Source: a virus
DNA: 42,279 nt
Direction: 5' to 3' (one strand)
Virus record (IMG/VR): IMGVR_UViG_3300003311_000002
Location: 1-42,279 of that record
The notes beneath the pieces were generated by a model. The model saw nothing but the letters and a program-made list of their open reading frames with translations. It searched no databases and was not told the origin of the DNA. How positions within the stretch are numbered: position 1 is the first letter of the stretch; every line of letters begins with the position of its first letter. Shown one piece after another: positions 294-42,279 of this stretch. Made by a program: the position numbers and the translations under genes.

Positions 294-344
294 ACATGAC
301 TAAGCTTTTGATGTGCATTGGGTGATGCTTTAAAAGATGTAGTC

Positions 345-1556
345 ATGAAAAGAAAAAAACTCATTAGTCTTCCACGCTTGAATGATTGCGATGGAGATAT
401 CAACGGAGATTGGTATGTAACCTATAGTTACAGACATCCAAAAACCGACAAGATGAAGCCTTTCCGGATCTACACCGGATTCAAAGAATTGAATACAAAG
501 AAGGCCAGGTATACTCATGCCGAAAAATTAATCGAAGAATGGACAGACAAATTGAAGCTTGGTTATAATCCTTTTGAGGATGATAGTACTGCCATCTATG
601 CTGATCAGCTTGCATACACGCATATTGCAAAGTTCTTCGGCAACCAAAAGAAATTGAATAAGAGCTTTAATTTTTTCGCATCAGAGTTTTTGGAAAGTAT
701 AAAGAACTCCGTGGATGCTGAAGGAACACTTCCTACCTACCGAAGCAAACTAAGAACTTTTAATGCCTGGTTACAGACAAAAAATTTACATGAAGTTGAT
801 ATTACTGCCATAGACAATAGAGTAATTCTGGATTTCTTTGAATATATGATAGACGATTTGAAGCGATCACAAATTACCATACAAAAGTACTATCAGATTT
901 TGAGTAATGTTTTTGAACCATTGGCCAAGCAGAAAAAGATCCTTGAAAATCCGGTGTATGATATCCCTAAATGTACACGTATAAATGACAACACTCCACG
1001 ACCATTTAGTAAGGAAGATATTGAAATATTCAAACCAGTTCTACAAGAAGATCCTCAGCTTTGGTTATCGATACAATTCGAATATTATTGTGCTTTGCGA
1101 CCAGGAAAAGAAATTCGATTACTTCAAATTAAGGATATTGATTTTGCTCGAGGAACGGTTAATGTGTCGCGATTTAGAGCAAAAACCAACCTGCAGAGGA
1201 TTGTTACTATACCAAGACAGTTATTAAAAGAGCTACGCCATGATTACAAGCTGATGAATTATCCAGGTGAATATTATGTGATAGGGAATAAGCGTGAACC
1301 AGGACCGGATCCATACAGCAAAAATATAATGGCCAATCGATTTAGGGCTGTTCGAAAAAGATTAGGAATGCCTACAGAATACAAGTTCTATGGATTTAAA
1401 CATACCGGAAATGTGCGTGCTTCCGATTCAGGAATACCAATGAGACACATACAAGATCAGAACGGACATACATCCATATCAACCACTGAGACATATTTGA
1501 AAAACAGGGGAGGTAAATTCTCTAAAGAAATCAGTGAAAACTTTCCTGACTTATAA
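345..1556 (+). CDS. int: Tyrosine site-specific recombinase (phage integrase)
   Basis: The C-terminal HTGNVR...GHTSISTTETYL stretch fits the tyrosine recombinase catalytic region. Adjacent to tRNA/attL. ATG at 345 preferred over the TTG at 318 in the ORF track. Confidence 0.85.
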   Translation: MKRKKLISLPRLNDCDGDINGDWYVTYSYRHPKTDKMKPFRIYTGFKELNTKKARYTHAEKLIEEWTDKLKLGYNPFEDDSTAIYADQLAYTHIAKFFGNQKKLNKSFNFFASEFLESIKNSVDAEGTLPTYRSKLRTFNAWLQTKNLHEVDITAIDNRVILDFFEYMIDDLKRSQITIQKYYQILSNVFEPLAKQKKILENPVYDIPKCTRINDNTPRPFSKEDIEIFKPVLQEDPQLWLSIQFEYYCALRPGKEIRLLQIKDIDFARGTVNVSRFRAKTNLQRIVTIPRQLLKELRHDYKLMNYPGEYYVIGNKREPGPDPYSKNIMANRFRAVRKRLGMPTEYKFYGFKHTGNVRASDSGIPMRHIQDQNGHTSISTTETYLKNRGGKFSKEISENFPDL

Positions 1557-4086: not shown

Positions 4087-7000
4087 GCTTTTTCAGTTTA
4101 GATTTTAAATACTCCACTTCCTTTTTAAGTAGGGTTATCCTGGTATCATTTTGCAGAATACCGGCAGTGTTCTGAGCAATCATTTCAATGGTATTGATTC
4201 TCAATTTGCCATCCTTACGCTTGCTTACAAATTCCGGGAATACTTCTTGAATTTCCTGAGCGATAAAACCTCTATGCAAAATCTGTTCACCTTCCTTGTA
4301 ATAGAATGTCACCGGGCGTGTTTTACGAAGAGCTTTCAATGGATTGCCAATCGTTTTAATCCTTTTCTTCAACCTCTTATCGGAAGGTGTACCCCAGTGA
4401 ATGGCTCCATCTACATCAAGATCACCATAAACCTCTAGATTGACAGGATCAGGCAATGCATCTGTACCTACTCTTACTTTCTTTTGCTTACCCCAACATG
4501 CTAAGAGAGGATATTGAGCTCGGCCATCGTAAACGTAAAAATCTCGATATCGGGTTGTGTCTCCATTGTAACCATACCAATTAACAGATAAAGGCCTACT
4601 ATCGTCATCCCCATCCGTTCGATACAAATGCGCTCCATCGATTACAATATTACCGGCTCCCAATGTTTGTGAGTTACTGATAAACTTTCCGGATAATGTA
4701 ACATTGTTCCCCACTGCATTATCAAAGTTGATTTGTGCAGCAGTTAATTGATCAATGATATTTGCGGCTTTAACTTTTAAGGATTCGGCAATTACTGTTG
4801 TTGTTGCTATAACATTCTGAGAAATGGAAGTAACATTGGTATCAACATCATTTAAAGAGGGAGTCCAAGCTGTTGCTTTGTCTCCAATTTCAATTTTTAC
4901 GTTATTGATTTTAAAACCTTCATCGTTTAGTCCCAATCCAACTTTAGCAAACATGATACTGATATCTTCAGTAACAGGTGATATAAATGAAAAGGCATAC
5001 CTTTTATATTGGGTTGTACTCCCATCAATAAGAACTCCCGGTAGACTAACATTTCCAGAAGACTTCATTATATACATGTAATTTAAAGAAGAAGTACTAT
5101 ACATCGAGGCAGCATCGAAAGACACCATATATTTTACACCTTGCTTTGCCGCAAACCTTGGTGTTATTGCCCCGAAACCATTAGTGTATCCATACTTAAC
5201 TATTCTACGACCTTTATCTGCAGGTTCTGAAATAGTAGGACTACCCCATGTGCCCCATCCAGTAAAACCGTCAGAGAAATTTGAATTATCTAAAAGATTC
5301 TCTCCTCCAACTACGAGAGCATCAACCTTTGCTTGCGCTCCGGAAGTTGTTTCCACATTCTCAGTACCGATTACCTTCTCCCACGAGATCACAGCATTTT
5401 CACCCATTAAAATTTCATCGCCAACTTTCAATCCTAAAGTTGCAATGTATGGAGCTTTGATTTCGCGGTGAGTGATTGTAACGGCATCTGCTTCGGTAAT
5501 CTTCAAATCAGCCAAATTGTAAGCACTATCAGCTTTTGATTGTGCAGTACTGGCCACGGCAGTGGCAGCAGCTTCGGCAGCATCGGCTTTGTCTTGTGCT
5601 CCTGTTTGAGTCTCGGCATTACCACCAGTAACATGAATTTCACCAGATACACGAACATTCTCGAAGTAACCAAAATCTTTCACATACAAGCCTTTTTCCA
5701 TGTCACCAAAAACAGGCGAATGCATGTTCAGATACCCCAACTGAGCAATGATATTATTAAAGGTAGTATTGTGGTCATTCACACCTCCCAGTACTCGAAC
5801 AAAACCATTCAGACCATCAACAAACACAGAGGTTTGTCTGTCTGTATTGGTTTCATTTCCTTTTCTGGCCAACTGCATAAACTTGCGTGGAGATATTCCA
5901 TTTCGGGAATTCACAACAACCTGGTTGTTTTCCAGATCAACGGATACAACATCCAAATAACATGTTTGAAATCCAGTATCATGGTTGAATATCCCAATCA
6001 GTATATCATCCACTTCGAAGCTCACACCATCACCTTCTTCAATTTTCAGCGTTAGTGTGTATGGTCCTGTACCGGAAACATCTTGAATCAGTCCCGGATC
6101 AGTGAACCAAAATTGATTCCCGGCAACTCGCACCTGGTTCTTTATTAATTCCGGTGTGCGCAAAAATTCTCTAAGATCAAGAGATTTCATTTCGCCATGG
6201 CCAGACTGATTGATCTTAGCACCAACGCCACCAATAATACCAGGAGCAAAAGCAGAGGTAACAAAATTACGATGAACAATTGCATCGTACATTGTCCAAG
6301 TCTTTGTGGAAATATCAGAATTGTATTTGTTCCAATAATCGGCTGCGGCTATTCCTCCCAAATGATCAGAGTTGTTTGCCAAGTCTGCAAAACCGGCTTT
6401 TATTTTATCAGCTCCAACTTTCAGATAAAGCGAATCGTTTATCAATTCTTGCTTAGTCCAGTAGTTGACCGCTTCAAGATTGCCCAGGCGGTCAGCATTG
6501 GCCACCCAAACTTCACCATTATTCGACTCCAGATAATTACCATCTAAAGCAAGCGTATCGAGAAAAGCTTTATTGGCATGTTCGTGAAGATCTTCAACCA
6601 AAGCATAAGCAGACAAATCAACATGACTGCCTACTTCATCACCGGAAACAAATCCCATTGCAGCAACTTCGGAAAGAATGTTCGTGCGAATTGCTCCGTA
6701 ATTTGTCACTCCCCATTTCTCAGTAAAAGGAACCTGAACAGGAATCAACAATTGGCTGTTCAGGATTGCACTTGGAAACTCGCTAAGTCTGGGAGCTAAA
6801 AAAAAAAGTTCGGAGTCAGGATCTACGATTTGAACTTCGGTTGGTAACTCGTTTGCCCTGGATAAATTCAGGTATTTGGTTTGCCGAGAAAGAGCAAATT
6901 CAAAGTCATAATTATAGGTAGTGATATCACCCTGTACCGATTTGGCTTTTGGCTTACTAACAGTAATGGATTGATAACCGGTATCAGCGCAATAGTATCT

Positions 7001-9700: not shown

Positions 9701-12700
9701 TTACAAGTTTGCTGCGTTCTTAATCGTTTCGACTTCCTCTTCCATTTCCTCCAGTTCCTTATAAATAAGAACTGCACGGATACCTTTTTTCAATATGGTA
9801 TTCAACTCCTGGGTTGTTGCTGTGGATTGCTGAAGAATGGAAATTATTGAATTGTCATCGGTTGAATCTGATGGTTCTGGAGTTGTTTCTGAAGGTGTAT
9901 AACCTCCCTGTTCTCTTCCTTCAGCTACCATACTACTGGTGACAGCAGGCAAGTTCAAAGTTTCAATTGTACCGGCACGCTGAGCTGCATCGATCACATC
10001 GAGATAAGGCTTAACCGTTGGATTCTTAACTGCTGCACCATTGGCCACAAATTCTGGATCCTTCTCTCCAACGATTACAGTTGGCTTATCAATGAAGCCA
10101 CGGCGTTTGGCTTGAAATCTTGCCCGAAACTCTTTGTTATCCTGGGCACGGCGAACTTTGGTGAAACCACCTTCTTCAAAACCTTGAATAGTTTGAGCTG
10201 CTATTTTTGCAGTTTGCAGTACTGCAGAAGCTGTATTAATACCAACCCAAGGCTGACCTGCAGTTAAAGGCATAGCTGCAACAGCCTTTGCATTCGCTAT
10301 TCCTGTATGAAACCAAACTCGACCAATAGCCATTGCTTGTTCGGCAACAAACAACATCTTACCAAGGGCTGTTTCTTCTCCTACAATAGTGCGAAGTGTA
10401 GCTAAACCATTCATGGCTAAATCTAATTCAGCCTCTTTAATCGCTACTTTTGCTCTTAGCCTATCATTTTCAATCTTTTTAACGTCATCCTCATACTTAC
10501 GCTTGGCCTGTAGTTCTTTTAATCGATTACCATTGGCAGCCTTGAATTCCTGGTCATATCGTTCTTTTGTAAGATTGAATTGCGCCTGCCATTTTGCCTC
10601 GTCGGTTTCAGCTTCAAGAATATCAGCTTCTAACTCCTCAATGGTGGAAGCTTCTTTATAAGCATCTTTAATTGCTTTTTTTGCAAGTTGATATTCCTCT
10701 TCAGATATTAATTCCCGATTGTGATAATCCTCTAATTGTCTTAATGCTTCATTGTACTTCTCACCATCTTTTTCAAGTCCATACTGTTTTCGGATAGCTG
10801 CAAGTTGCTCCTGAGCTTTGAGATAAGCCGCTATTTCTCTATCCATTTGAGCCTCGAATTCCTTATCATCTGATCCATCATCTTTGAATGGCTTGATTTT
10901 GATAGTTCCAAGTTCCTTCAATCTTTTTATTTCATCTTCAATAGTCTTTATATACAAGTTTTTAGACGCAATCTCTTTTTCTGTTGATTCTGGCATCTCC
11001 TTTGCCAGAGCTAGCTGATTCTCTAATTCTTTTATTAGAGATTTAGTTGTAGTAACAACAGGAGGTGGATTTGTTGATGAATTAATAGAGGCTAAATAGT
11101 TCTTAACGATACCATTCATTTTTTCAAGAGAGAGCCCTGTTTTATTACTAATTTCTGCTTCAGTAAGACCTATGTCTTTTAGCTTGAGAAGTGTTTTGGC
11201 CAGTTCAGTATTCTTCTCTTTTATTACGCCCTGTTGATCACGGATGGCCTTTAGGTTGTTATTCTCAATTTTCGATCGCTCCATTCCAGTGTTATTAATA
11301 ACAGTCTGCATTTTAGTTTCGTCGGTGAGAAGTTCATTCCTGGCTTTAATTTGGCCGTTGGCACGTTCAATATCCATCACGTAATCATCAATTCCATCGA
11401 TAAGATTGTCGATGACTTCTTCTTTCATTTCAAGGTTTAATAATCGTTGAGCCTCTCGAGCTTCTTTTATTTTATCCTTGTTAATGCCAATTGCATCACC
11501 ATATTTATTAAACTCTGTTATTGCAGTTGGAACAATATTCCCAATATCACGAATAGCTGAATTCAATTGAATTTGCTCTTCTTTGGTTAAGTTCCCTTTG
11601 GTTTTTAGAGTATCGTAAGTTCCTAATAGACTGGATAGTGTTTTCTTTTCATTTGCAAACTGTTTTTCAATCTTTTGCAAATCATCAACCTGTTTAAGCA
11701 AACGATCACTGGAAGAAGTAATTAGGTAGTTAGCCACATCTTCTTTCAATTGTCTCCACCATAGAGAAATTGATTTTTGTAAGCGAATTAACTGGTTACC
11801 TTTCTTTTGATATGCGGTTTGTGCATCTGCTGACTTTTTATATAATAAATCGAGAGTGGCCAATGCTTGAGCCTGTGCTTTTGTAGCCCCTTCCTCTGCC
11901 ATTTTTTGTTTCACGAGGTTTCGATATTCTTCACTATCCATTTTAATGGCAATACCAAGCTGCTTTAATTGTTCCATTTCACCAAGCATAGCCTTGGTTA
12001 AAATATTACTCACTTCAGAAACTCCTAACTTACCGGCAGTCCATTCATCCAATGCACCTGCAAGACCTTGTACTTGCGAAGCCATATCAGCAGCCTTTTT
12101 TCTCGTAAAATCAAGAGGAACAAGTAAGTCAGCTGTATTGGCAACCATACTCACAAACTCACGATTTGTAACACCCATTTTTTCAGCAAGCCCTTCAGCC
12201 TGACCTTCTACATAGCCTAACTGATCACCCAGTACAGTTGTAGAGCGAATGGCTTCACCCTGTATAGTTTTGGAAAGATTAAATATCTCAACTCCTGCAG
12301 TTTTGATCCAACCAACAAAAGTCGCTATCCCGGCAGCAGGAAGAATATTAACAGCAACACGCTTTAATCCAGTCAAAACGGACATACTGCTCTTTGAACC
12401 ATGCTTAACTTTATCCAATTGCTTTTCTGTTGCAATTAATTGCTTGTTCAGTTTATTCCATTTTTCAGGCTCAAGTTTTTTCGATGTACCACTAAGTGCT
12501 GCACCTAATTCTATTGAGCGTTTACGTAGTTGCCTTTTTGACATCTCCGTAAGCTTCAATTTAGAATTTAGCTCCTCCAATTTTCCTCTTTGGATGGTAA
12601 GCAGCTTATTGTTGATTTTATGCTGATTATTCAATTCCTTCCATGCCGGAGAATTCTTTTTGCCTTGCGCCTCGAGCTTGGCCATCTCGTATTTTAGCCG

Positions 12701-30561: not shown

Positions 30562-31080
30562 TTAAAACATAGATGTTTGAAACTCTAAGAAGCGAGAAAC
30601 CTTAATTTTCTCACGTCGACGAAAGTCAATTTTCTTCACAGCCTCGAAATTGAGTGAATTATTTTGGATGTTGAAGCCTTTAATTATCGACTCGGTAATC
30701 TCTTTTTGGGAGTACCTCTTTTGGTATCCATACTCAAACATATTTCGAACCTCTCTCCGGAACTCCGTTTCGATGTAATCCTGGATTCTTTCTTCAGCCC
30801 ATTTGCTCACATAGCAAAAATTGTGAGTTAATGCATAGTGGTTGTTTTTGGTGATTGGCAAAATAAAGGTTGTAGGTTTCACAAGTAAAGGTCGTTTAAC
30901 AGGAGTCTCACTTATTGATACCAATGCAGAGATCCGTTTGCCGAAATCATGATTTCGTTTCAGAACGATTGCACCATCCTCGGTGTAGTCAAATAAGAAC
31001 CTGCAGTAATCAGCCAAATGTGGATCAAGATCGATAGTTACGGTTGGAAGATTTGCCGCGATAGTAGTTACTTTTCCCAT
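30562..31080 (-). CDS. Hypothetical protein (172 aa); candidate late-gene regulator by position
   Basis: First ORF after the 860-bp non-coding region and ahead of the capsid operon. ATG at 31080 preferred, since the track start at 31188 is TTG and lies inside a -7 box. Confidence 0.6.
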   Translation of the reverse strand: MGKVTTIAANLPTVTIDLDPHLADYCRFLFDYTEDGAIVLKRNHDFGKRISALVSISETPVKRPLLVKPTTFILPITKNNHYALTHNFCYVSKWAEERIQDYIETEFRREVRNMFEYGYQKRYSQKEITESIIKGFNIQNNSLNFEAVKKIDFRRREKIKVSRFLEFQTSMF

Positions 31081-31185
31081 ATGCTCTTTTATTCTAAGAT
31101 ATAGTAGTGGTTTACAAATAAAAAAGACTTGGCGGCCAGTACTCCAAAGATAATAATTTATGCCTTCCCCGTGTTTAATTTTCCT

Positions 31186-31193
31186 CAAAACTA
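31186..31193 (-). promoter_or_regulatory. Perfect TAnnTTTG -7 box (TAGTTTTG) upstream of the 172-aa ORF
   Basis: - strand TAGTTTTG about 105 nt upstream of the ATG at 31080. No clear -33 TTTG found. Confidence 0.3.
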
Positions 31194-31266
31194 TTGACTA
31201 TAATTGAATTTCCTCGATACAGTTCAAAAGGGTAGTACCCCCAAAACTCAGCACTTTTTTTGAATT

Positions 31267-31535
31267 TTTTGTAATTGCCCTTGTAAGTGTTTGATATATA
31301 AGTCCTTTGCAATTACAAAAGGCTTTCTTTGATTTTGTATATGTTTGATAATCAGCAATTACATTTTTGTAATTGGAGATGGTTTTTTGTAATTGCTTGA
31401 ATTATTTCGATTTGGTTTTAGATTAAATTAAAATAAAGATTGAAAAATTACATTTCAATTTTGAAAATGTAATTCTTTTGTAATTGAGTAAGTTTTTAAA
31501 TTCGAGAACTTTATATATTAAAATTACAAATTACA
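31267..31535. repeat. Array of TTTTGTAATTG(C) repeats in both orientations (candidate origin or operator array)
   Basis: Full copies at 31267..31278, 31309..31320 (reverse complement), 31365..31375, 31385..31396 and 31476..31486. Partial copies at 31355..31363, 31444..31452, 31468..31474 and 31522..31530. Confidence 0.7.
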
Positions 31536-31828
31536 TTTTTTTTAATAAAGGGGTTAGAGGGGGAAGGGGCAGAAAAGCCGACGAGGGCGAACTATGTATT
31601 TAGTTAGTGTTTTTGTATGGGGTTGGTGCTAGGCAAAAGCTGCGCAGAGTTTTAAATATGGCGTGCCGGTCCTGGTGCGATTGTTTAGAGCTTTAAAAAT
31701 GCGGTGGTGTTCGAGAGTTCGATATCTTCTGAAAGTGCGGTGATATCTGCTTGACAGGTGCTGTTAATGGGTTTGTGAAGTTGTTGTGGACAATGCAACA
31801 AATAAAGGCTGACCGGCACATAATAAAA

Positions 31829-31846
31829 ATGCCCCTGGAGGGGCAT
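31829..31846 (-). terminator. Intrinsic terminator for - strand (early operon) transcripts
   Basis: atgcccc-tgga-ggggcat stem followed on the - strand by UUUUAUUAU. Confidence 0.55.
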
Positions 31847-32053: not shown

Positions 32054-32755
32054 TTACTCATATCCTAATCTTTGTATAACCCATGATGCAAAATCATTCA
32101 TGTCCTCGAAATCATCTGAAAGCATTAATTCTGCAGACTTCTCATCTATCTCATCACAAATAGCTGCTCTTAATTTTAATTTATCCAAACAATGAGAGCA
32201 GAGCGTGTGATCAGCGTCTACCCAGTGACAATTTTCTTTCTCCGGATGAGTGCAAGCATTGTCATCGGTGCAACCACACACTTGACAAATGCCATAACCC
32301 TTCTGTAGGGATTTAGGATTAGCCATATGTCTTGCCAACTGTACAGGATCGCAATTTTCAAAAGAACGAAGTGTTTTGGTTAGCATTTGAATTCTCTCAT
32401 AAGCTTTTGGACTGTGCTCTTTCCAGTATTCATTTGTTACACTTTCAATTTCATCACATTTTTCCTGAATGAATTCTGTTTTCCAAAGCTTCTCCGGCAA
32501 TTTCATCTGGACTGAGCAATTGTTGATTGAACGATGCATATCGAACATCATACCTCCATTGTACAGCTTATGCAATCCGGATCCATCCTCATTGTCGATA
32601 AAAAACTCTTCGCCTGGTGTGATTACTTTTACAGCCTGACGAACCTGACCAACAAATGGTTTAGTCCATGGCATTTCAAAATCAGTACATTCATTAATAA
32701 ATACATCGCAAACCTCGTAAGTCACTGGTTCACCATTCCAAAATCCTTGTTTCAT
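32054..32755 (-). CDS. Hypothetical protein with a C-terminal Cys-rich (zinc-binding-like) motif
   Basis: CQVCGCTDDNACTHPEKENCHWVDADHTLCSHC near the C-terminus. Last gene of the early array. Confidence 0.65.
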   Translation of the reverse strand: MKQGFWNGEPVTYEVCDVFINECTDFEMPWTKPFVGQVRQAVKVITPGEEFFIDNEDGSGLHKLYNGGMMFDMHRSINNCSVQMKLPEKLWKTEFIQEKCDEIESVTNEYWKEHSPKAYERIQMLTKTLRSFENCDPVQLARHMANPKSLQKGYGICQVCGCTDDNACTHPEKENCHWVDADHTLCSHCLDKLKLRAAICDEIDEKSAELMLSDDFEDMNDFASWVIQRLGYE

Positions 32756-37586: not shown

Positions 37587-38498
37587 TCAGGTGAGCAAGC
37601 ATTCAGAAACTTCTCCGGTGTAATATCGATTGTGTTGTGTTGAGTTATTTTGGGCATAGTTCAGTTTTAATTCAATTTGCTTAATCAATTTCTTTAGTCT
37701 GGCCAGTTCCTTTTGAGCTGTTTTTTGTTCCTCCCGGGTTGTTGTTGCAGCAAGATTCTGAAACTGTTTTTCCAGGCGAACATTTAATAACTGGAGAGCT
37801 CTTTTTCTATCTTCTCGATTCACTCCTTTTTTATTTCGGAGCTCAAGATTTTCGGGATCATCATTAAGAGGATCGAGATCTATATGAAATACATTCATTC
37901 CTGCAGGAACAGGAGAGATAAAATTGTGATAGAACCATCTGGAGTAAGGAGTAAATTTCCCGTCTACTTTAATGACTCTGATTAGTTTGCCATCCTGACG
38001 TTTCCAGATTTTGATATCACCATCTTTTGATTTTTGTCTAACACCACGAGACCAATAGTTGTCTGAAGAAGTAATCACCGGTGTTAATCCAATTTCAATA
38101 TTTCTTTTCTTGATGGCTGATACTTCTTCCGGAGTTCTCTTCAGCTTGAGGAGCTTTAATTTTTTCTCTACATGCTTTTTATTGAATTGCCGGTAAACTC
38201 TTTTCCCATCAATTACACGAAAGGTTTTTTTTCGTTTTGTAAGGAGTATGGCCAATTCAACATTACCTTTTTTTCTGAAGTGTTTTTTCAAATAATTGAC
38301 ATCTTCCTGACTCCACCTTATTTGAATCTGACGAAGGATTCCCATTCTAATGAATTGATGTCTCATAGCTGAATATCCAACAGGTTTAGAACGTTTGGCA
38401 TTGATCGCATCCAGTAGTTGCTGATTGGTCAGCTTATTGATGTTTTCCTTCAGAAATAGTAATTCATCAGGATACCAATTAACCTTTTCTCTATCCAT
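37587..38498 (-). CDS. HNH endonuclease-like protein with repeated N-terminal DNA-binding modules
   Basis: FHIDLDPLNDDPENLELR fits an HNH_3-type motif. N-terminal repeats W..DEL.FLK / WSQEDVNYLKKH. Confidence 0.6.
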   Translation of the reverse strand: MDREKVNWYPDELLFLKENINKLTNQQLLDAINAKRSKPVGYSAMRHQFIRMGILRQIQIRWSQEDVNYLKKHFRKKGNVELAILLTKRKKTFRVIDGKRVYRQFNKKHVEKKLKLLKLKRTPEEVSAIKKRNIEIGLTPVITSSDNYWSRGVRQKSKDGDIKIWKRQDGKLIRVIKVDGKFTPYSRWFYHNFISPVPAGMNVFHIDLDPLNDDPENLELRNKKGVNREDRKRALQLLNVRLEKQFQNLAATTTREEQKTAQKELARLKKLIKQIELKLNYAQNNSTQHNRYYTGEVSECLLT

Positions 38499-38727
38499 TG
38501 TTACCTCCTTTTATGAATTCCTTCATTTGATTTACAACAGCTTCCTGTTCTGAGTTTTGCTCTGCTTTTATTTCATTGGCAACATTTACAGCTTGCTTAA
38601 CCATTGAATGGAGATCTGGAGACTGCAACATGGATGTTACCAACATATCGATGATCCGAAAACGCAAACCTTCCACTTCACCTTCTACTTTTCCATTGCT
38701 GTATTGTGTTATTTGTATCTTTGCCAT
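38491..38727 (-). CDS. Hypothetical protein (78 aa)
   Basis: ATG ORF overlapping the HNH gene start by 8 nt. Confidence 0.55.
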   Translation of the reverse strand: MAKIQITQYSNGKVEGEVEGLRFRIIDMLVTSMLQSPDLHSMVKQAVNVANEIKAEQNSEQEAVVNQMKEFIKGGNNG

Positions 38728-38754
38728 GACTACATTTTTTAATAGTTAAAAATT

Positions 38755-38802
38755 AGAGAGCTGTCCTAGCCGCCAAGCATTATGGACAGCTCTCTTTTTT
38801 TG
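38755..38802. terminator. 12-bp perfect hairpin (loop carries TAGCCGCCAAGC) with flanking A7/T7 runs; bidirectional terminator-like
   Basis: agagagctgtcc (38755..38766) pairs with ggacagctctct (38784..38795). T7 follows on the + strand; AAUUUUUAA follows on the - strand. Confidence 0.6.
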
Positions 38803-38835
38803 ATTCACTTTTACACTAAATCTCAATTTCTTTTT

Positions 38836-38886
38836 AAACACTCCCGGCCTTCTGTAGCCGCCAAGCTCAAAGGCAGGGGAGTGTTT
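38836..38886. other. Second strong hairpin with the same 12-nt loop sequence TAGCCGCCAAGC
   Basis: aaacactccc (38836..38845) pairs with gggagtgttt (38877..38886), plus inner gcc/ggc. The loop 12-mer at 38855..38866 is identical to 38767..38778. Confidence 0.6.
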
Positions 38887-39004
38887 GGTTTCTGATCAGA
38901 AATATTAATGAGTTTTCCCTGGTTGCGTTTCCCGGCTTTAATATGATGTTGTATGTAGTAATGAAGTTAGCTCTTCGGTTTTTCGGATCCGCCAGGGAAA
39001 TATT

Positions 39005-39277
39005 TTATAGTCTACACGAACACGGTTTCTCTACTCCAACAATACCTTCGGTGTGTCCGCGATATTCTTCGCTGATGATCACTCCGGTATCTTTGCACTT
39101 AATGCATTTGTATTTTGGCTGAAGAGTAAGCATGGATTTAATTTTCTCGGCATGCCCTTTTATTGATGCTTTACCGTGAGCCACATTGCCTGAAGAAAGC
39201 CTTTCGGCCTCGCTTATGATTACGTTCAGATACATCTCGGTAAGCTGAAGGTTCTCTTTAGTTATTTCAAAGTTCAT
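39005..39277 (-). CDS. Hypothetical protein with a C-terminal Cys motif (about 90 aa)
   Basis: CIKCKDTG...CSC, zinc-ribbon-like. ATG at 39277 (track start is TTG). Confidence 0.55.
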   Translation of the reverse strand: MNFEITKENLQLTEMYLNVIISEAERLSSGNVAHGKASIKGHAEKIKSMLTLQPKYKCIKCKDTGVIISEEYRGHTEGIVGVEKPCSCRL

Positions 39278-39455
39278 TTTCAATTTCGTTTTTAATTAAT
39301 ACCACTCTAGCTTTCAATTCTTTTCTATTCTCTAATCTTGAGTTGCCTATTTCATTACCATACATTATTAAGGCTTCGTAGATTAACTCGAGGTCGATAT
39401 TCTCGAGCTGATGAATAGAAAATTCATTGTCGGATTTGTCAACATACGGTTTCAT
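39267..39455 (-). CDS. Hypothetical protein (62 aa)
   Basis: ATG at 39455 (track start is TTG). Confidence 0.45.
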   Translation of the reverse strand: MKPYVDKSDNEFSIHQLENIDLELIYEALIMYGNEIGNSRLENRKELKARVVLIKNEIENEL

Positions 39456-40670: not shown

Positions 40671-40886
40671 TTATAATGAATCAATTTGGTCTGTTAGATC
40701 ATCCTGTTTGTCTTGTGATTCCTTTGCTAGCTGTATAGCTGCTTCAATAATAAGAGGAGAGTTGATTTTTCCAGTAAGTGCCTGATATACTGAGGAGGTA
40801 GTTTTTCCTGTACGTTTTGCGAGCTCCTCTCCATATCCACGAGGCAGCTTGCTTCTGAGTTTCTTGAGTGCTTCCGACTTCATCAT
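40671..40886 (-). CDS. Cro-like small HTH regulator
   Basis: 71 aa. ELAKRTGKTTSSVYQALTGK looks like an HTH. Divergent from the CI-like repressor gene. Confidence 0.65.
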   Translation of the reverse strand: MMKSEALKKLRSKLPRGYGEELAKRTGKTTSSVYQALTGKINSPLIIEAAIQLAKESQDKQDDLTDQIDSL

Positions 40887-40900
40887 TATTACGTATTGTT

Positions 40901-40944
40901 TTACTGTTGTATTACTATTATATTACTGTTGTTTTACTGTTGTA
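40901..40944. promoter_or_regulatory. Four tandem 11-bp repeats (TTACTGTTGTA-type) in the switch region, candidate operators
   Basis: ttactgttgta / ttactattata / ttactgttgtt / ttactgttgta in exact 11-bp register. A perfect -7 box TAAATTTG (40955..40962, +) and the palindrome tttgga-aaaa-tccaaa (40959..40974) follow. Confidence 0.6.
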
Positions 40945-41007
40945 AAGGTGCATGTAAATTTGGAAAAATCCAAAAGAACATGTAATAAATATTTATTGAT
41001 ATTGCGT

Positions 41008-41451
41008 ATGTTTTTGAGTGACAGAATGAAAAAAGTGCAAGAGTACTACGATAAAAATCCAAGCAAGTTTGCTATTAGGATCGGACATGATCGATCTGAA
41101 ACAATTAGAAATGTAATTTCCGGTAAGACGTCGGATCCAAAAGCATCGTTAATTAATGATGTTCTGCGTGCCTGTCCGGAAGTTAATGCTCATTGGTTGA
41201 TTACAGGAGTAGGATCAATGCTGAAGGAAAAGAAATCCTCTCCAGTGATTGTTGAAGAAGCAAAAGGTGAGTATGGCTTTTGTATGTCGTGTATGAAGAA
41301 AGATGTTAAAATACAGGTGCTTACTGATCAGTTGAAGGAGCAGGAAAAAAAGAATGATAACTTATTAAAAGAAGTTGGAGGTTTGAAAAACGAGTTAGAT
41401 AATCTTGGTGGTTCAAACGGGAATGGTGGCACCATACCAGCCACCGGTTAA
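41008..41451 (+). CDS. CI-like phage repressor (HTH of the Phage_CI_repr type) with a C-terminal coiled coil
   Basis: ...ACPEVNAHWLITGVGSM matches the WLLTG.G.M signature of CI-type HTH domains. No S24 peptidase domain. Start at 41008 or 41026; the track's 40849 start reads through the operator repeats. Confidence 0.7.
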   Translation: MFLSDRMKKVQEYYDKNPSKFAIRIGHDRSETIRNVISGKTSDPKASLINDVLRACPEVNAHWLITGVGSMLKEKKSSPVIVEEAKGEYGFCMSCMKKDVKIQVLTDQLKEQEKKNDNLLKEVGGLKNELDNLGGSNGNGGTIPATG

Positions 41452-42152: not shown

Positions 42153-42204
42153 CGAGAATTTTGGAGAGTATTAAACTTTTTGAAAATCGAAAAGTAAGTT
42201 TTTT

Positions 42205-42279
42205 CGGGGTGTAGCGTAGCCCGGTCATCGCGCCTGCTTTGGGAGCAGGAGGTCGCAGGTTCGAATCCTGCCACCCCGA
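42205..42279 (+). tRNA. tRNA-Pro (anticodon UGG), second identical copy
   Basis: Sequence identical to 2..76. The window ends at the discriminator base. Confidence 0.9.

Follow-up and report, generated by a model that had tools for sequence, protein, structure and literature searches.

The related phages P1 and P7 differ by matched changes in a regulator and its target, which give each of them a private specificity. This regulator is the c4 antisense RNA of the immI region (Citron and Schuster 1990, as cited in PMC8201110). Here, we analyzed a 277-nucleotide (nt) spacer at positions 38,728 to 39,004 of IMG/VR record IMGVR_UViG_3300003311_000002, an integrated temperate phage whose whole 42,279 nt we call the window. 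Two hairpins in this spacer, which lies among early genes on the - strand, carry the same short sequence in their loops, and that sequence is complementary to the leader of an open reading frame (ORF) of 172 amino acids (aa) that comes first before the structural genes. Comparison with related phages makes it probable, in our judgment, that the hairpin loops of the early mRNA act in trans as an antisense element on the 5' end of the late-operon mRNA. By analogy of logic, the closest known system would be P1/P7 c4, which the locus resembles in neither sequence nor structure. Both are RNA elements of a phage operon in which short, loop-displayed sequences are complementary to a site elsewhere in the phage's own mRNA. 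Here, however, the host belongs to Bacteroidota and the element matches no Rfam family. The target lies about 7.7 kilobases (kb) away at the 5' end of a presumed late mRNA, whereas c4 acts on the icd/ant ribosome-binding site of the same transcript. The loops of the present system also sit in one to four hairpins among early genes.

Two other systems offer partial parallels. In IS10, the hairpin loop of RNA-OUT pairs with the extreme 5' end of its target mRNA, RNA-IN; RNA-OUT is cis-encoded and fully complementary to that target, whereas the partners here are trans-encoded and have only 12-14 nt in common. In phage P4, the CI RNA, a processed 79-nt species, pairs with seqA and seqC and brings about premature termination. 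Pairing in the present phage may likewise cause premature termination in a developmental switch, but the P4 termination sites lie in the same leader, whereas here a U-tract directly follows the target and there is no hairpin in cis. Since Bacteroides lack Hfq and ProQ (PMC7366714), GC-rich seeds displayed in loops would be a sensible design.

The 277-nt region folded better than its shuffled versions, with z = -5.46 on the - strand and -4.38 on the + strand, and 0 of 200 shuffles were as good. The features of the locus are collected in the table below. The sequence-only reading had described both hairpins, the shared loop 12-mer (TAGCCGCCAAGC, at 38767-38778 and 38855-38866, 88 nt apart), a palindrome, a long-range stem and an inverted 9-mer, and we recovered every one of them at the positions given there. 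Its "10+3-bp" description of hairpin 2 held for the outer stem of 10 base pairs (bp) and had to be corrected for the inner one, which has 5 bp instead of 3. The apical region of hairpin 2 carries its copy of the motif and has a possible 4-bp apical helix, while hairpin 1 stands 28 nt 5' of the start codon of a 78-aa ORF.

The hairpin 1 loop and the leader block of the 172-aa ORF form 10 Watson-Crick and 2 G·U pairs. The inverted 9-mer at the core of this match, GCCGCCAAG, occurs three times in the window against 0.11 expected (1 of 100 shuffles), with two + strand copies in the hairpin loops and a single - strand copy at 31128-31136, 48 nt 5' of the ATG. The leader site was also the best sense-strand duplex partner of both loops (-22.0 and -23.1 kcal/mol). 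Taken within the window alone, the loop-leader match is statistically unexceptional, and its significance comes from related phages.

Features of the hairpin locus, the leader of the 172-aa ORF and the surrounding genes in the window
Feature	Position	Strand	Remarks
Hairpin 1	38755..38795	-	perfect 12-bp stem, 17-nt loop AUAAUGCUUGGCGGCUA, -24.5 kcal/mol
Hairpin 1 loop motif UGCUUGGCGGCUA	38767..38779	-	complementary to leader block 31126-31138
Hairpin 2	38836..38886	-	10-bp outer stem, 5-bp inner stem (GCCUU/AAGGC), -27.1 kcal/mol
Hairpin 2 loop motif AGCUUGGCGGCUA	38855..38867	-	complementary to leader block
Palindrome TTTCTGATCAGAAA	38889..38902	.	perfect, 14 nt, contains GATC; unique in the window
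Upstream structured domain	38914..39000	-	closed by long-range stem UUUCCCUGG/CCAGGGAAA
Invariant block AAAGCCGGGAAAC	38927-38939	-	inside upstream structured domain
Small hairpin GAAG-AGCUAA-CUUC	38963-38976	-	inside upstream structured domain
172-aa ORF	30562..31080	-	first gene before 125-aa ORF, S49 peptidase and structural genes
U6 tract	31120..31125	-	directly 3' of target block
Target block UGGCCGCCAAGUC	31126..31138	-	leader of 172-aa ORF, 46-58 nt 5' of ATG
-7 box TATCTTTG	31145..31152	-	perfect match to Bacteroidetes TAnnTTTG; 6 nt 5' of target block
Canonical terminator AUGCCCCUCCAGGGGCAU then UUUUUAUU	31829-31846	-	4-nt loop; closes early block
Free-standing HNH_3 endonuclease gene	37587-38498	-	just downstream of hairpin region
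78-aa ORF	38491..38727	-	directly 3' of hairpin 1; ATG at 38727
Early operon, start		-	in order: Cro-like 71-aa, 117-aa, GerE/LuxR-type 181-aa, 96-aa, 66-aa and 92-aa genes
Early operon, rest		-	in order: 277-nt spacer, 78-aa orphan ORF, HNH endonuclease (303 aa), 116-aa gene, primase-helicase
Tyrosine integrase	318-1556	+	adjoins left tRNA-Pro copy

Protein-guided searches brought up five lineages with a recognisable system: the window and the contigs L155, L169, L166 and L154 with their close relatives, whose loops and targets are given here as gene-sense RNA. In the lineage of L155, L149 and L003, whose primase is 80% identical to that of the window, L155 carries hairpin 1 three times with the loop UGCUUGGCGGCUC and hairpin 2 once with the loop GGCUUGGCGGUCG, so that the motif stands in four loops. 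The L155 target is the same as that of the window and lies within a 22-nt block of perfect identity whose flanks differ. In L155/L149 this target ranked first by a clear margin as duplex partner of both loop types (-21.4 vs -17.7 and -25.2 vs -23.2). The pair is therefore kept in this lineage, and in two others it changes on both sides. L169 (Logan SRR24204447, primase 80%) has the target UGACCGCCAAGUC, with the loop GACUUGGCGGUUU in a hairpin directly after the GerE gene and the loop AACUUGGCGGUUA in hairpin 2. A G-to-A change in its target (GGCC to GACC) is met by a C-to-U change in the two loops (GGC to GGU), and the loop-target pairs comprise 11 and 10 contiguous Watson-Crick pairs.

The strongest match came from L166/L171, found in the window's own metagenome, where the primase is different and the 172-aa homologue is 67% identical. 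L166 has one hairpin, located after the GerE gene, whose stem GAGACUGUUC/GGACAGUUCUC is clearly related to that of hairpin 1. Its loop AGACUUGACGGUUA and leader UAACCGUCAAGUCU form 14 of 14 Watson-Crick pairs (the target block variant is listed as UAACCGUCAAGUC). Relative to the window, two double compensatory changes (G-C to A-U and C-G to U-A) were present, and three wobble or mismatch positions had become Watson-Crick. This match was the sole complement of at least 12 nt in the 9.9 kb upstream, and only 1 of 300 shuffles was as good. The window loops reached -22 to -23 kcal/mol on their own target vs -14 on the L166 target, and the L166 loop -22.7 kcal/mol on its own target vs about -17 on others. 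For these two phages, which co-occur in one metagenome, the gap between cognate and non-cognate pairs is thus about 5-8 kcal/mol, demonstrating specificity between them. A further target variant, UGACCCGCCAAGUC, occurs in L203, a contig too short to include the loops. Overall, the two partners, both read on the gene-sense strand, form duplexes of 12-14 bp at -20 to -25 kcal/mol. The comparison of sequences shows that loop and target are co-conserved and co-varying in related phages; the check on co-variation had been set beforehand, and in L169 and L166 the two sides did change together. L166 also holds a palindrome, CTTGACGGTCAAG (L166:216-228), at the end of the ORF before the GerE gene, which contains both loop-type and target-type sequence and may be a chance occurrence or a further site.

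Searches beyond these lineages added little. The more distant contigs L150-L153, L167/168, L172-L179 and L200-L202 had neither the loop motif nor the leader block. Deposited phage genomes gave zero matches by DNA similarity, as did IMG/VR when searched for the exact two-loop pattern. A 16-base loop-plus-stem pattern returned 25 matches in IMG/VR and more than 120 in representative genomes, all chance matches in GC-rich DNA except for a known relative. Matches to the leader pattern TATCTTTG...CAAGTCTTTTT in IMG/VR were real only in three known lineages, and a literature search with the motif as a string yielded primer sequences only. One other complement was considered and rejected: L155:13774-13787 matches positions -70 to -57 of the leader over 14 nt without a mismatch (2 of 300 shuffles), joining the -7 box and spacer to codons 3-7 of an ORF that lies about 1.4 kb farther upstream; as the window has no counterpart, we regard it as chance.

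We then asked of the same sequences on which strand, and in which nucleic acid, the pairing works. The stem of hairpin 1, which has homologues in L155 (three copies), L154, L169 and L166, shows compensatory changes at 2 pairs, and 97.6% of cells are paired in an alignment of six hairpin-1 copies. In hairpin 2, the inner stem of L155 carries one compensatory change (G-C to A-U). The small hairpin of the upstream domain changes from GAAG/CUUC to GAGG/CCUC in L154, L169 and L166. The 9-bp long-range stem (38914-38922 with 38992-39000) is, by inspection of the sequence, replaced in L154 by UGUGUG/CGCACG including G·U pairs; in the MAFFT alignment, RNAalifold scored several closing-stem pairs as broken in L154. 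The U·G stem pairs of hairpin 1 copies a and b in L155 work on the gene-sense strand only. On the opposite strand, these pairs, those of the L154 closing stem (by inspection) and the apical U·G become A·C mismatches. The internal differences between loop and target are all G·U-compatible, with mismatches at helix ends only. Because these differences are G·U-compatible and the stem changes keep pairing, RNA pairing on the gene-sense strand is favoured, and the sequences show the gene-sense strand to be the one on which pairing works.

These observations also bear on the idea that the motif is a duplex DNA operator bound by a phage regulator, such as the GerE/LuxR-type protein whose gene lies just upstream, with one copy at the late promoter start, others in the early operon, and a specificity that differs between phages. 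The leader copy does overlap the inferred start of a promoter that has no -33 element, a motif-bearing hairpin lies directly 3' of the GerE gene in L166 and L169, and co-variation of inverted copies would be expected from an operator as well. Such an operator would, however, leave unexplained why the motif stands in a hairpin loop in 10 of 10 motif-bearing hairpins from five lineages, with at least three stem types, and why the leader copy of this non-palindromic motif is always inverted. It is equally at odds with internal copy differences that are all G·U-compatible and with stems that keep pairing through compensatory and G·U changes. We consider a DNA operator very unlikely.

Another possibility is that a protein of the phage or the host binds the RNA loops, which would be either nut/put-like antitermination sites or translational operators, recognised through a small apical helix (GCU/GGC) capped by a UGRC tetraloop. 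The first of these had been offered in the sequence-only reading as a second explanation. All copies, the GGAGG variants among them, are indeed predicted to form an apical helix of 3-4 bp with a UGGC, UGGA or UGAC loop. Each operon has several copies, and their early-operon place after Cro-like, GerE/LuxR-type and small genes resembles that of lambdoid nutR/tR1. On the other hand, the apical helix has only 3 bp, including a U·G pair, and does not vary among the six aligned hairpin-1 copies, so it offers no co-variation of its own. No N-like or other RNA-binding protein was found, the flanking small proteins had no Pfam or PHROG matches, and Rfam gave no match: in a permissive Rfam scan, the interval 38300-39400 returned chance-level matches only (E >= 0.95), and with Rfam 15, whose models include the phage antisense and antitermination RNA families described so far, only two tRNA-Pro copies in the whole window reached the gathering score. 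Protein binding would also leave the joint change of the complementary leader block and the loop unexplained. Protein sites thus appear improbable.

The surroundings of the hairpins raise a third alternative. In L155:7337-8330 (= L003:6492-7447), three near-identical units of hairpin 1 and an A/U-rich leader follow one another, and about 25 nt after each of them a small gene begins (141, 90 and 72 aa). Between hairpin 2 and the 115/116-aa gene, the window, L155, L154 and L169 have different sets of genes, which marks this interval as a variable hot spot; the 78-aa ORF, an orphan with zero sequence relatives in a large protein database, holds the place of a 72-aa gene in L155 and a 71-aa gene in L154. 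Judging from the L155 copies, the hairpin with its leader is also a portable gene-expression cassette in a variable region. This arrangement recalls the promoter-early stem-loops (PeSLs) of T4-type phages (PMC2839356, PMC4122927), in which a repeated stem-loop unit likewise stands before small, poorly conserved genes in a variable region and reaches the start codon. As with PeSLs, the hairpin unit could mediate gain and loss of gene cassettes. PeSLs are, however, defined by a strong sigma-70 early promoter beside the stem-loop (PMC2839356), whereas the A/U-rich leader of 25-30 nt here has no sigma-70 match and, by inspection, no TAnnTTTG box. As the promoter is absent from the hairpin unit, it is not a PeSL. 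PeSL loops also differ in having no reported complementary partner elsewhere in the genome.

On this view, the hairpins would be ordinary terminators, attenuators or mRNA-stabilising stem-loops in a PeSL-like cassette spread by recombination, with the loop conserved only because the copies are recent and the leader match incidental. The three near-identical copies of L155 in a region of differing gene content are what it predicts, and chance suffices to explain the 9-nt match as long as only the window is considered. The hairpins stand between an A-run and a U-rich tail, and in L169 hpA and the L166 hairpin, U-rich tracts follow directly. Of the sense-strand tails, that of the window reads AAUUUUUAAC, those of L155 are poor, and those of L169 hpA and L166 are good; on the opposite strand, there is a good U-tract in every copy. 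Against it, hairpins 1 and 2 have unrelated stems and yet both retain the motif in the window, L155 and L169, and loop and leader block change in step in L169 and L166. Loops of 17-22 nt are also atypical of terminators; the phage's own terminator at 31846-31829 has a loop of 4 nt, and a terminator scan did not call hairpins 1 and 2, whose stems are strong, because their loops of 17-19 nt are too long. The 25-30 nt from hairpin to ATG hold no promoter, so the element that defines PeSLs is missing. We therefore rate an incidental match in a cassette as unlikely, while noting that cassette and trans pairing are compatible, since the hairpin may also attenuate transcription. Three related ideas were rejected. 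Terminators of antisense (+ strand) transcription would have good U-tracts, but the G·U pairs become A·C mismatches on that strand. The loop might have served as a -7 box (TATGCTTG in L155), but its TA is not kept in the window or in hairpin 2 and there is no -33 element. The inverted 9-mers could have been recombinase sites around an invertible 7.6-kb segment, but the similarity is too short and the segment contains the whole replication module.

At the other end of the pairing, the leader has the same layout in all five lineages. The -7 box TATCTTTG, a match to the Bacteroidetes -7 promoter consensus TAnnTTTG (PMC7366714), is kept in the window, L155, L169, L166 and L154. It is followed by a spacer of 6-7 nt with variable sequence, the block, and a U-tract, which is U5-6 in every relative with the target block. 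We looked for a -33 TTTG before TATCTTTG and found it absent, which suggests an activator-dependent promoter. From this layout, we infer a transcription start of the late operon immediately 5' of the target block. With a start at the usual distance from the box, the block would form the first 13-14 nt of the RNA. The U-tract is predicted to pair with an A-rich stretch just before the start codon in the window and L155, and with codons 2-4 in L166. An additional contact between the A-run 5' of hairpin 1 and the U-tract was discarded: the two targets are contiguous, whereas the regulator segments are a 12-bp stem apart, so both could not pair simultaneously.

More distant homologues of the 172-aa protein (43-46% identity; L175-L177 and L179) have a complete hairpin with a long U-tract at the same distance from the ATG. 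In L175, the sequence UGGAGAA-AUGAUA-UUCUCCA at 9938-9957, with CGUUUUACUUUUUAUUUU after it, lies about 50 nt 5' of the ATG. The hairpin and U-tract together span L175:9938-9975, and in L179 they lie about 90 to 60 nt 5' of an estimated start at 5123. In lambda-type late control, a leader terminator (tR') stands after the late promoter, and Q brings about read-through. The L175 hairpin and U-tract, placed between an upstream non-coding region and the 172-aa homologue, have the layout of such a late-leader terminator. The leader of the window clade differs in having only the 3' half, a GC-rich block and a U-tract, with the complement in the early hairpin loops, and no Q-like protein was identified here. 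One explanation, which we put forward tentatively and regard as unlikely, is a split intrinsic terminator: the late RNA would carry the 3' half (GC-rich 13-mer and U5-6) and the early loops would supply the 5' half in trans. The level of early RNA would then set premature termination at about +20 of the late transcript, with a private loop/target pair per lineage. Given the cis hairpin and U-tract at the same leader position in distant relatives, a split terminator would amount to a natural cis-to-trans conversion.

Returning to the antisense reading in its general form, we propose the following mechanism. The spacer would be a structured stretch of an early polycistronic RNA, transcribed from the - strand of a temperate Marinilabiliales phage, and its two main hairpins would display CUUGGCGGC(U) in their loops. 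Together with the first bases of a late mRNA made from the -7-box promoter, these loops would form a helix of 12-14 bp in trans; in that mRNA, the 172-aa gene would head the late, structural gene block. The pairing is most likely regulatory and negative, because the loop-target helix ends at a U-tract, in the geometry of a terminator, and relatives have a real terminator there. A duplex ending at U5-6 would mimic an intrinsic terminator, expose both RNAs to decay, or keep the leader from being translated. With early RNA abundant, late expression would thereby stay low until there are more late transcripts than loops. The GerE-type regulator is another product of the early operon, which would make the circuit an incoherent feed-forward loop, in which early RNA both prepares and restrains late transcription, and late transcripts, rising with genome copy number, titrate the loops. 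The differing loop/target versions of co-occurring phages would be private specificities, as in P1 vs P7. Two other directions are conceivable from the same sequences: the late RNA may act on the early genes after each hairpin, or pairing may free the start region and activate translation.

Several points weigh against this proposal. The putative transcription start is placed by a -7 box without a -33 element, and a promoter for a separate small RNA was looked for upstream of the region with none found. A helix of 12-14 bp within a loop of 17-22 nt is strained unless the apical helix and part of the stem open. In the window, the leader site is only 0.1 kcal/mol ahead of the runner-up, the duplex energy is no outlier, and 171 of 300 shuffled leaders had a complement of 9 nt or more within the 11 kb upstream. 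Judged on the window alone, the match comes close to the chance expectation that the sequence-only reading had named as grounds for refutation. The hairpin 1 loop of L154 and L169 has a GGAGG variant that breaks the helix. In L154, a Marinifilum breve prophage with hairpin 1 loop GCUUGGAGGCUA, a replaced hairpin 2 and target UAGCCGCCACAAGUC, pairing is lost (-12.2 kcal/mol, rank 329); the downstream gene is a very divergent allele that tblastn missed. Informative lineages number four, two of them with the same motif, and co-varying inverted copies would also arise if one DNA-binding protein read both. The loop-leader pairing first proposed from the window is accordingly supported in part, by co-conservation in L155/L149 and co-variation in L169/L166, and not by the window itself or by L154. 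Finally, the 172-aa protein is a candidate late-block gene by position alone. It had been labelled a candidate late regulator, a name that we drop: the protein had zero Pfam or PHROG matches, and its structure model was poor, with a mean predicted local distance difference test score (pLDDT) of 54.

Other parts of the spacer are conserved as well. Its DNA has a mean column identity of 72%, compared with 37-66% amino-acid identity for the neighbouring genes, and is thus conserved at least as well as the flanking genes are at the protein level. The core of the palindrome, TTCTGATCAGAA, is kept in the window, L155, L154 and L169; the palindrome could be either a small RNA hairpin or a DNA operator. 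The invariant block of the upstream domain has a related form, AAAGCCUGAAAAC, in L166, and resembles the 3' arm of hairpin 2 (AAGGCCGGGA), which lies 88 nt downstream on the sense strand.

The window corresponds to ENA ERZ23496695, MEYE16-1 scaffold_218. Both its ends are the same complete 76-nt tRNA-Pro(TGG), at 1-76 and 42204-42279. It has the appearance of a prophage delimited by attL and attR, the entire tRNA being the repeated sequence, or of a circular assembly that was closed at this repeat. Besides the integrase, nearly all genes are on the - strand. The closest named relative of the 994-aa primase-helicase is a Marinifilum breve protein, with others in Labilibacter, Breznakibacter and metagenome-assembled genomes of Bacteroidales, which places the host in the Marinilabiliales/Bacteroidales clade. 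The HNH_3 gene is likewise present in L169 (L169:3141-3806) and absent from L155 and L154; a search of IMG/VR for its relatives found none. An 11 of 12 match to the sigma-70 consensus (TTTACA-18-TATAAT) at 40917-40946 (-) is directed into the early operon, between a divergent 200-aa ORF (40849-41451, +) and the Cro-like 71-aa gene (40671-40886, -). This region is probably the immunity switch, and a near-consensus sigma-70-type promoter is unexpected for a Bacteroidota phage. The early-block terminator lies in non-coding DNA about 200 nt past the last early-block ORF (32054-32755) and is kept in L154. From there to the 172-aa gene, about 700 nt of non-coding DNA are rich in AATTACA repeats: at least 10 of the 23 AATTACA/TGTAATT copies in the window fall, in both orientations, within 31190-31560. 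A box in the same stretch reads TTTTGGGGGTACTAC in the window and TTTTAGGGGTGCTAC in L155, L154 and L169. Repeats and box recur in some version 5' of the homologous gene even where the primase is only 56% identical, and the stretch is a candidate replication origin or regulator-binding array.

We know of no RNA-RNA circuit in Bacteroidota phages, although we made no targeted literature search, and to our knowledge, the only demonstrations so far of a terminator completed in trans used oligonucleotides added in vitro. Little is known of base-pairing RNA regulators in Bacteroidota as a whole; the first trans-acting small RNA with identified targets in this phylum was described only in 2020 (PMC7366714). 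If the split-terminator explanation is true, the leader would be a natural version of a mechanism so far confined to the test tube. If the loops do act on the late mRNA, they would provide a compact early-to-late timing device for a widespread group of Marinilabiliales/Bacteroidales prophages, and a source of short, orthogonal loop/target pairs for reuse as parts in Bacteroidota. They would also represent a second natural case, after P1/P7, of lineage-specific RNA specificities in phage development.

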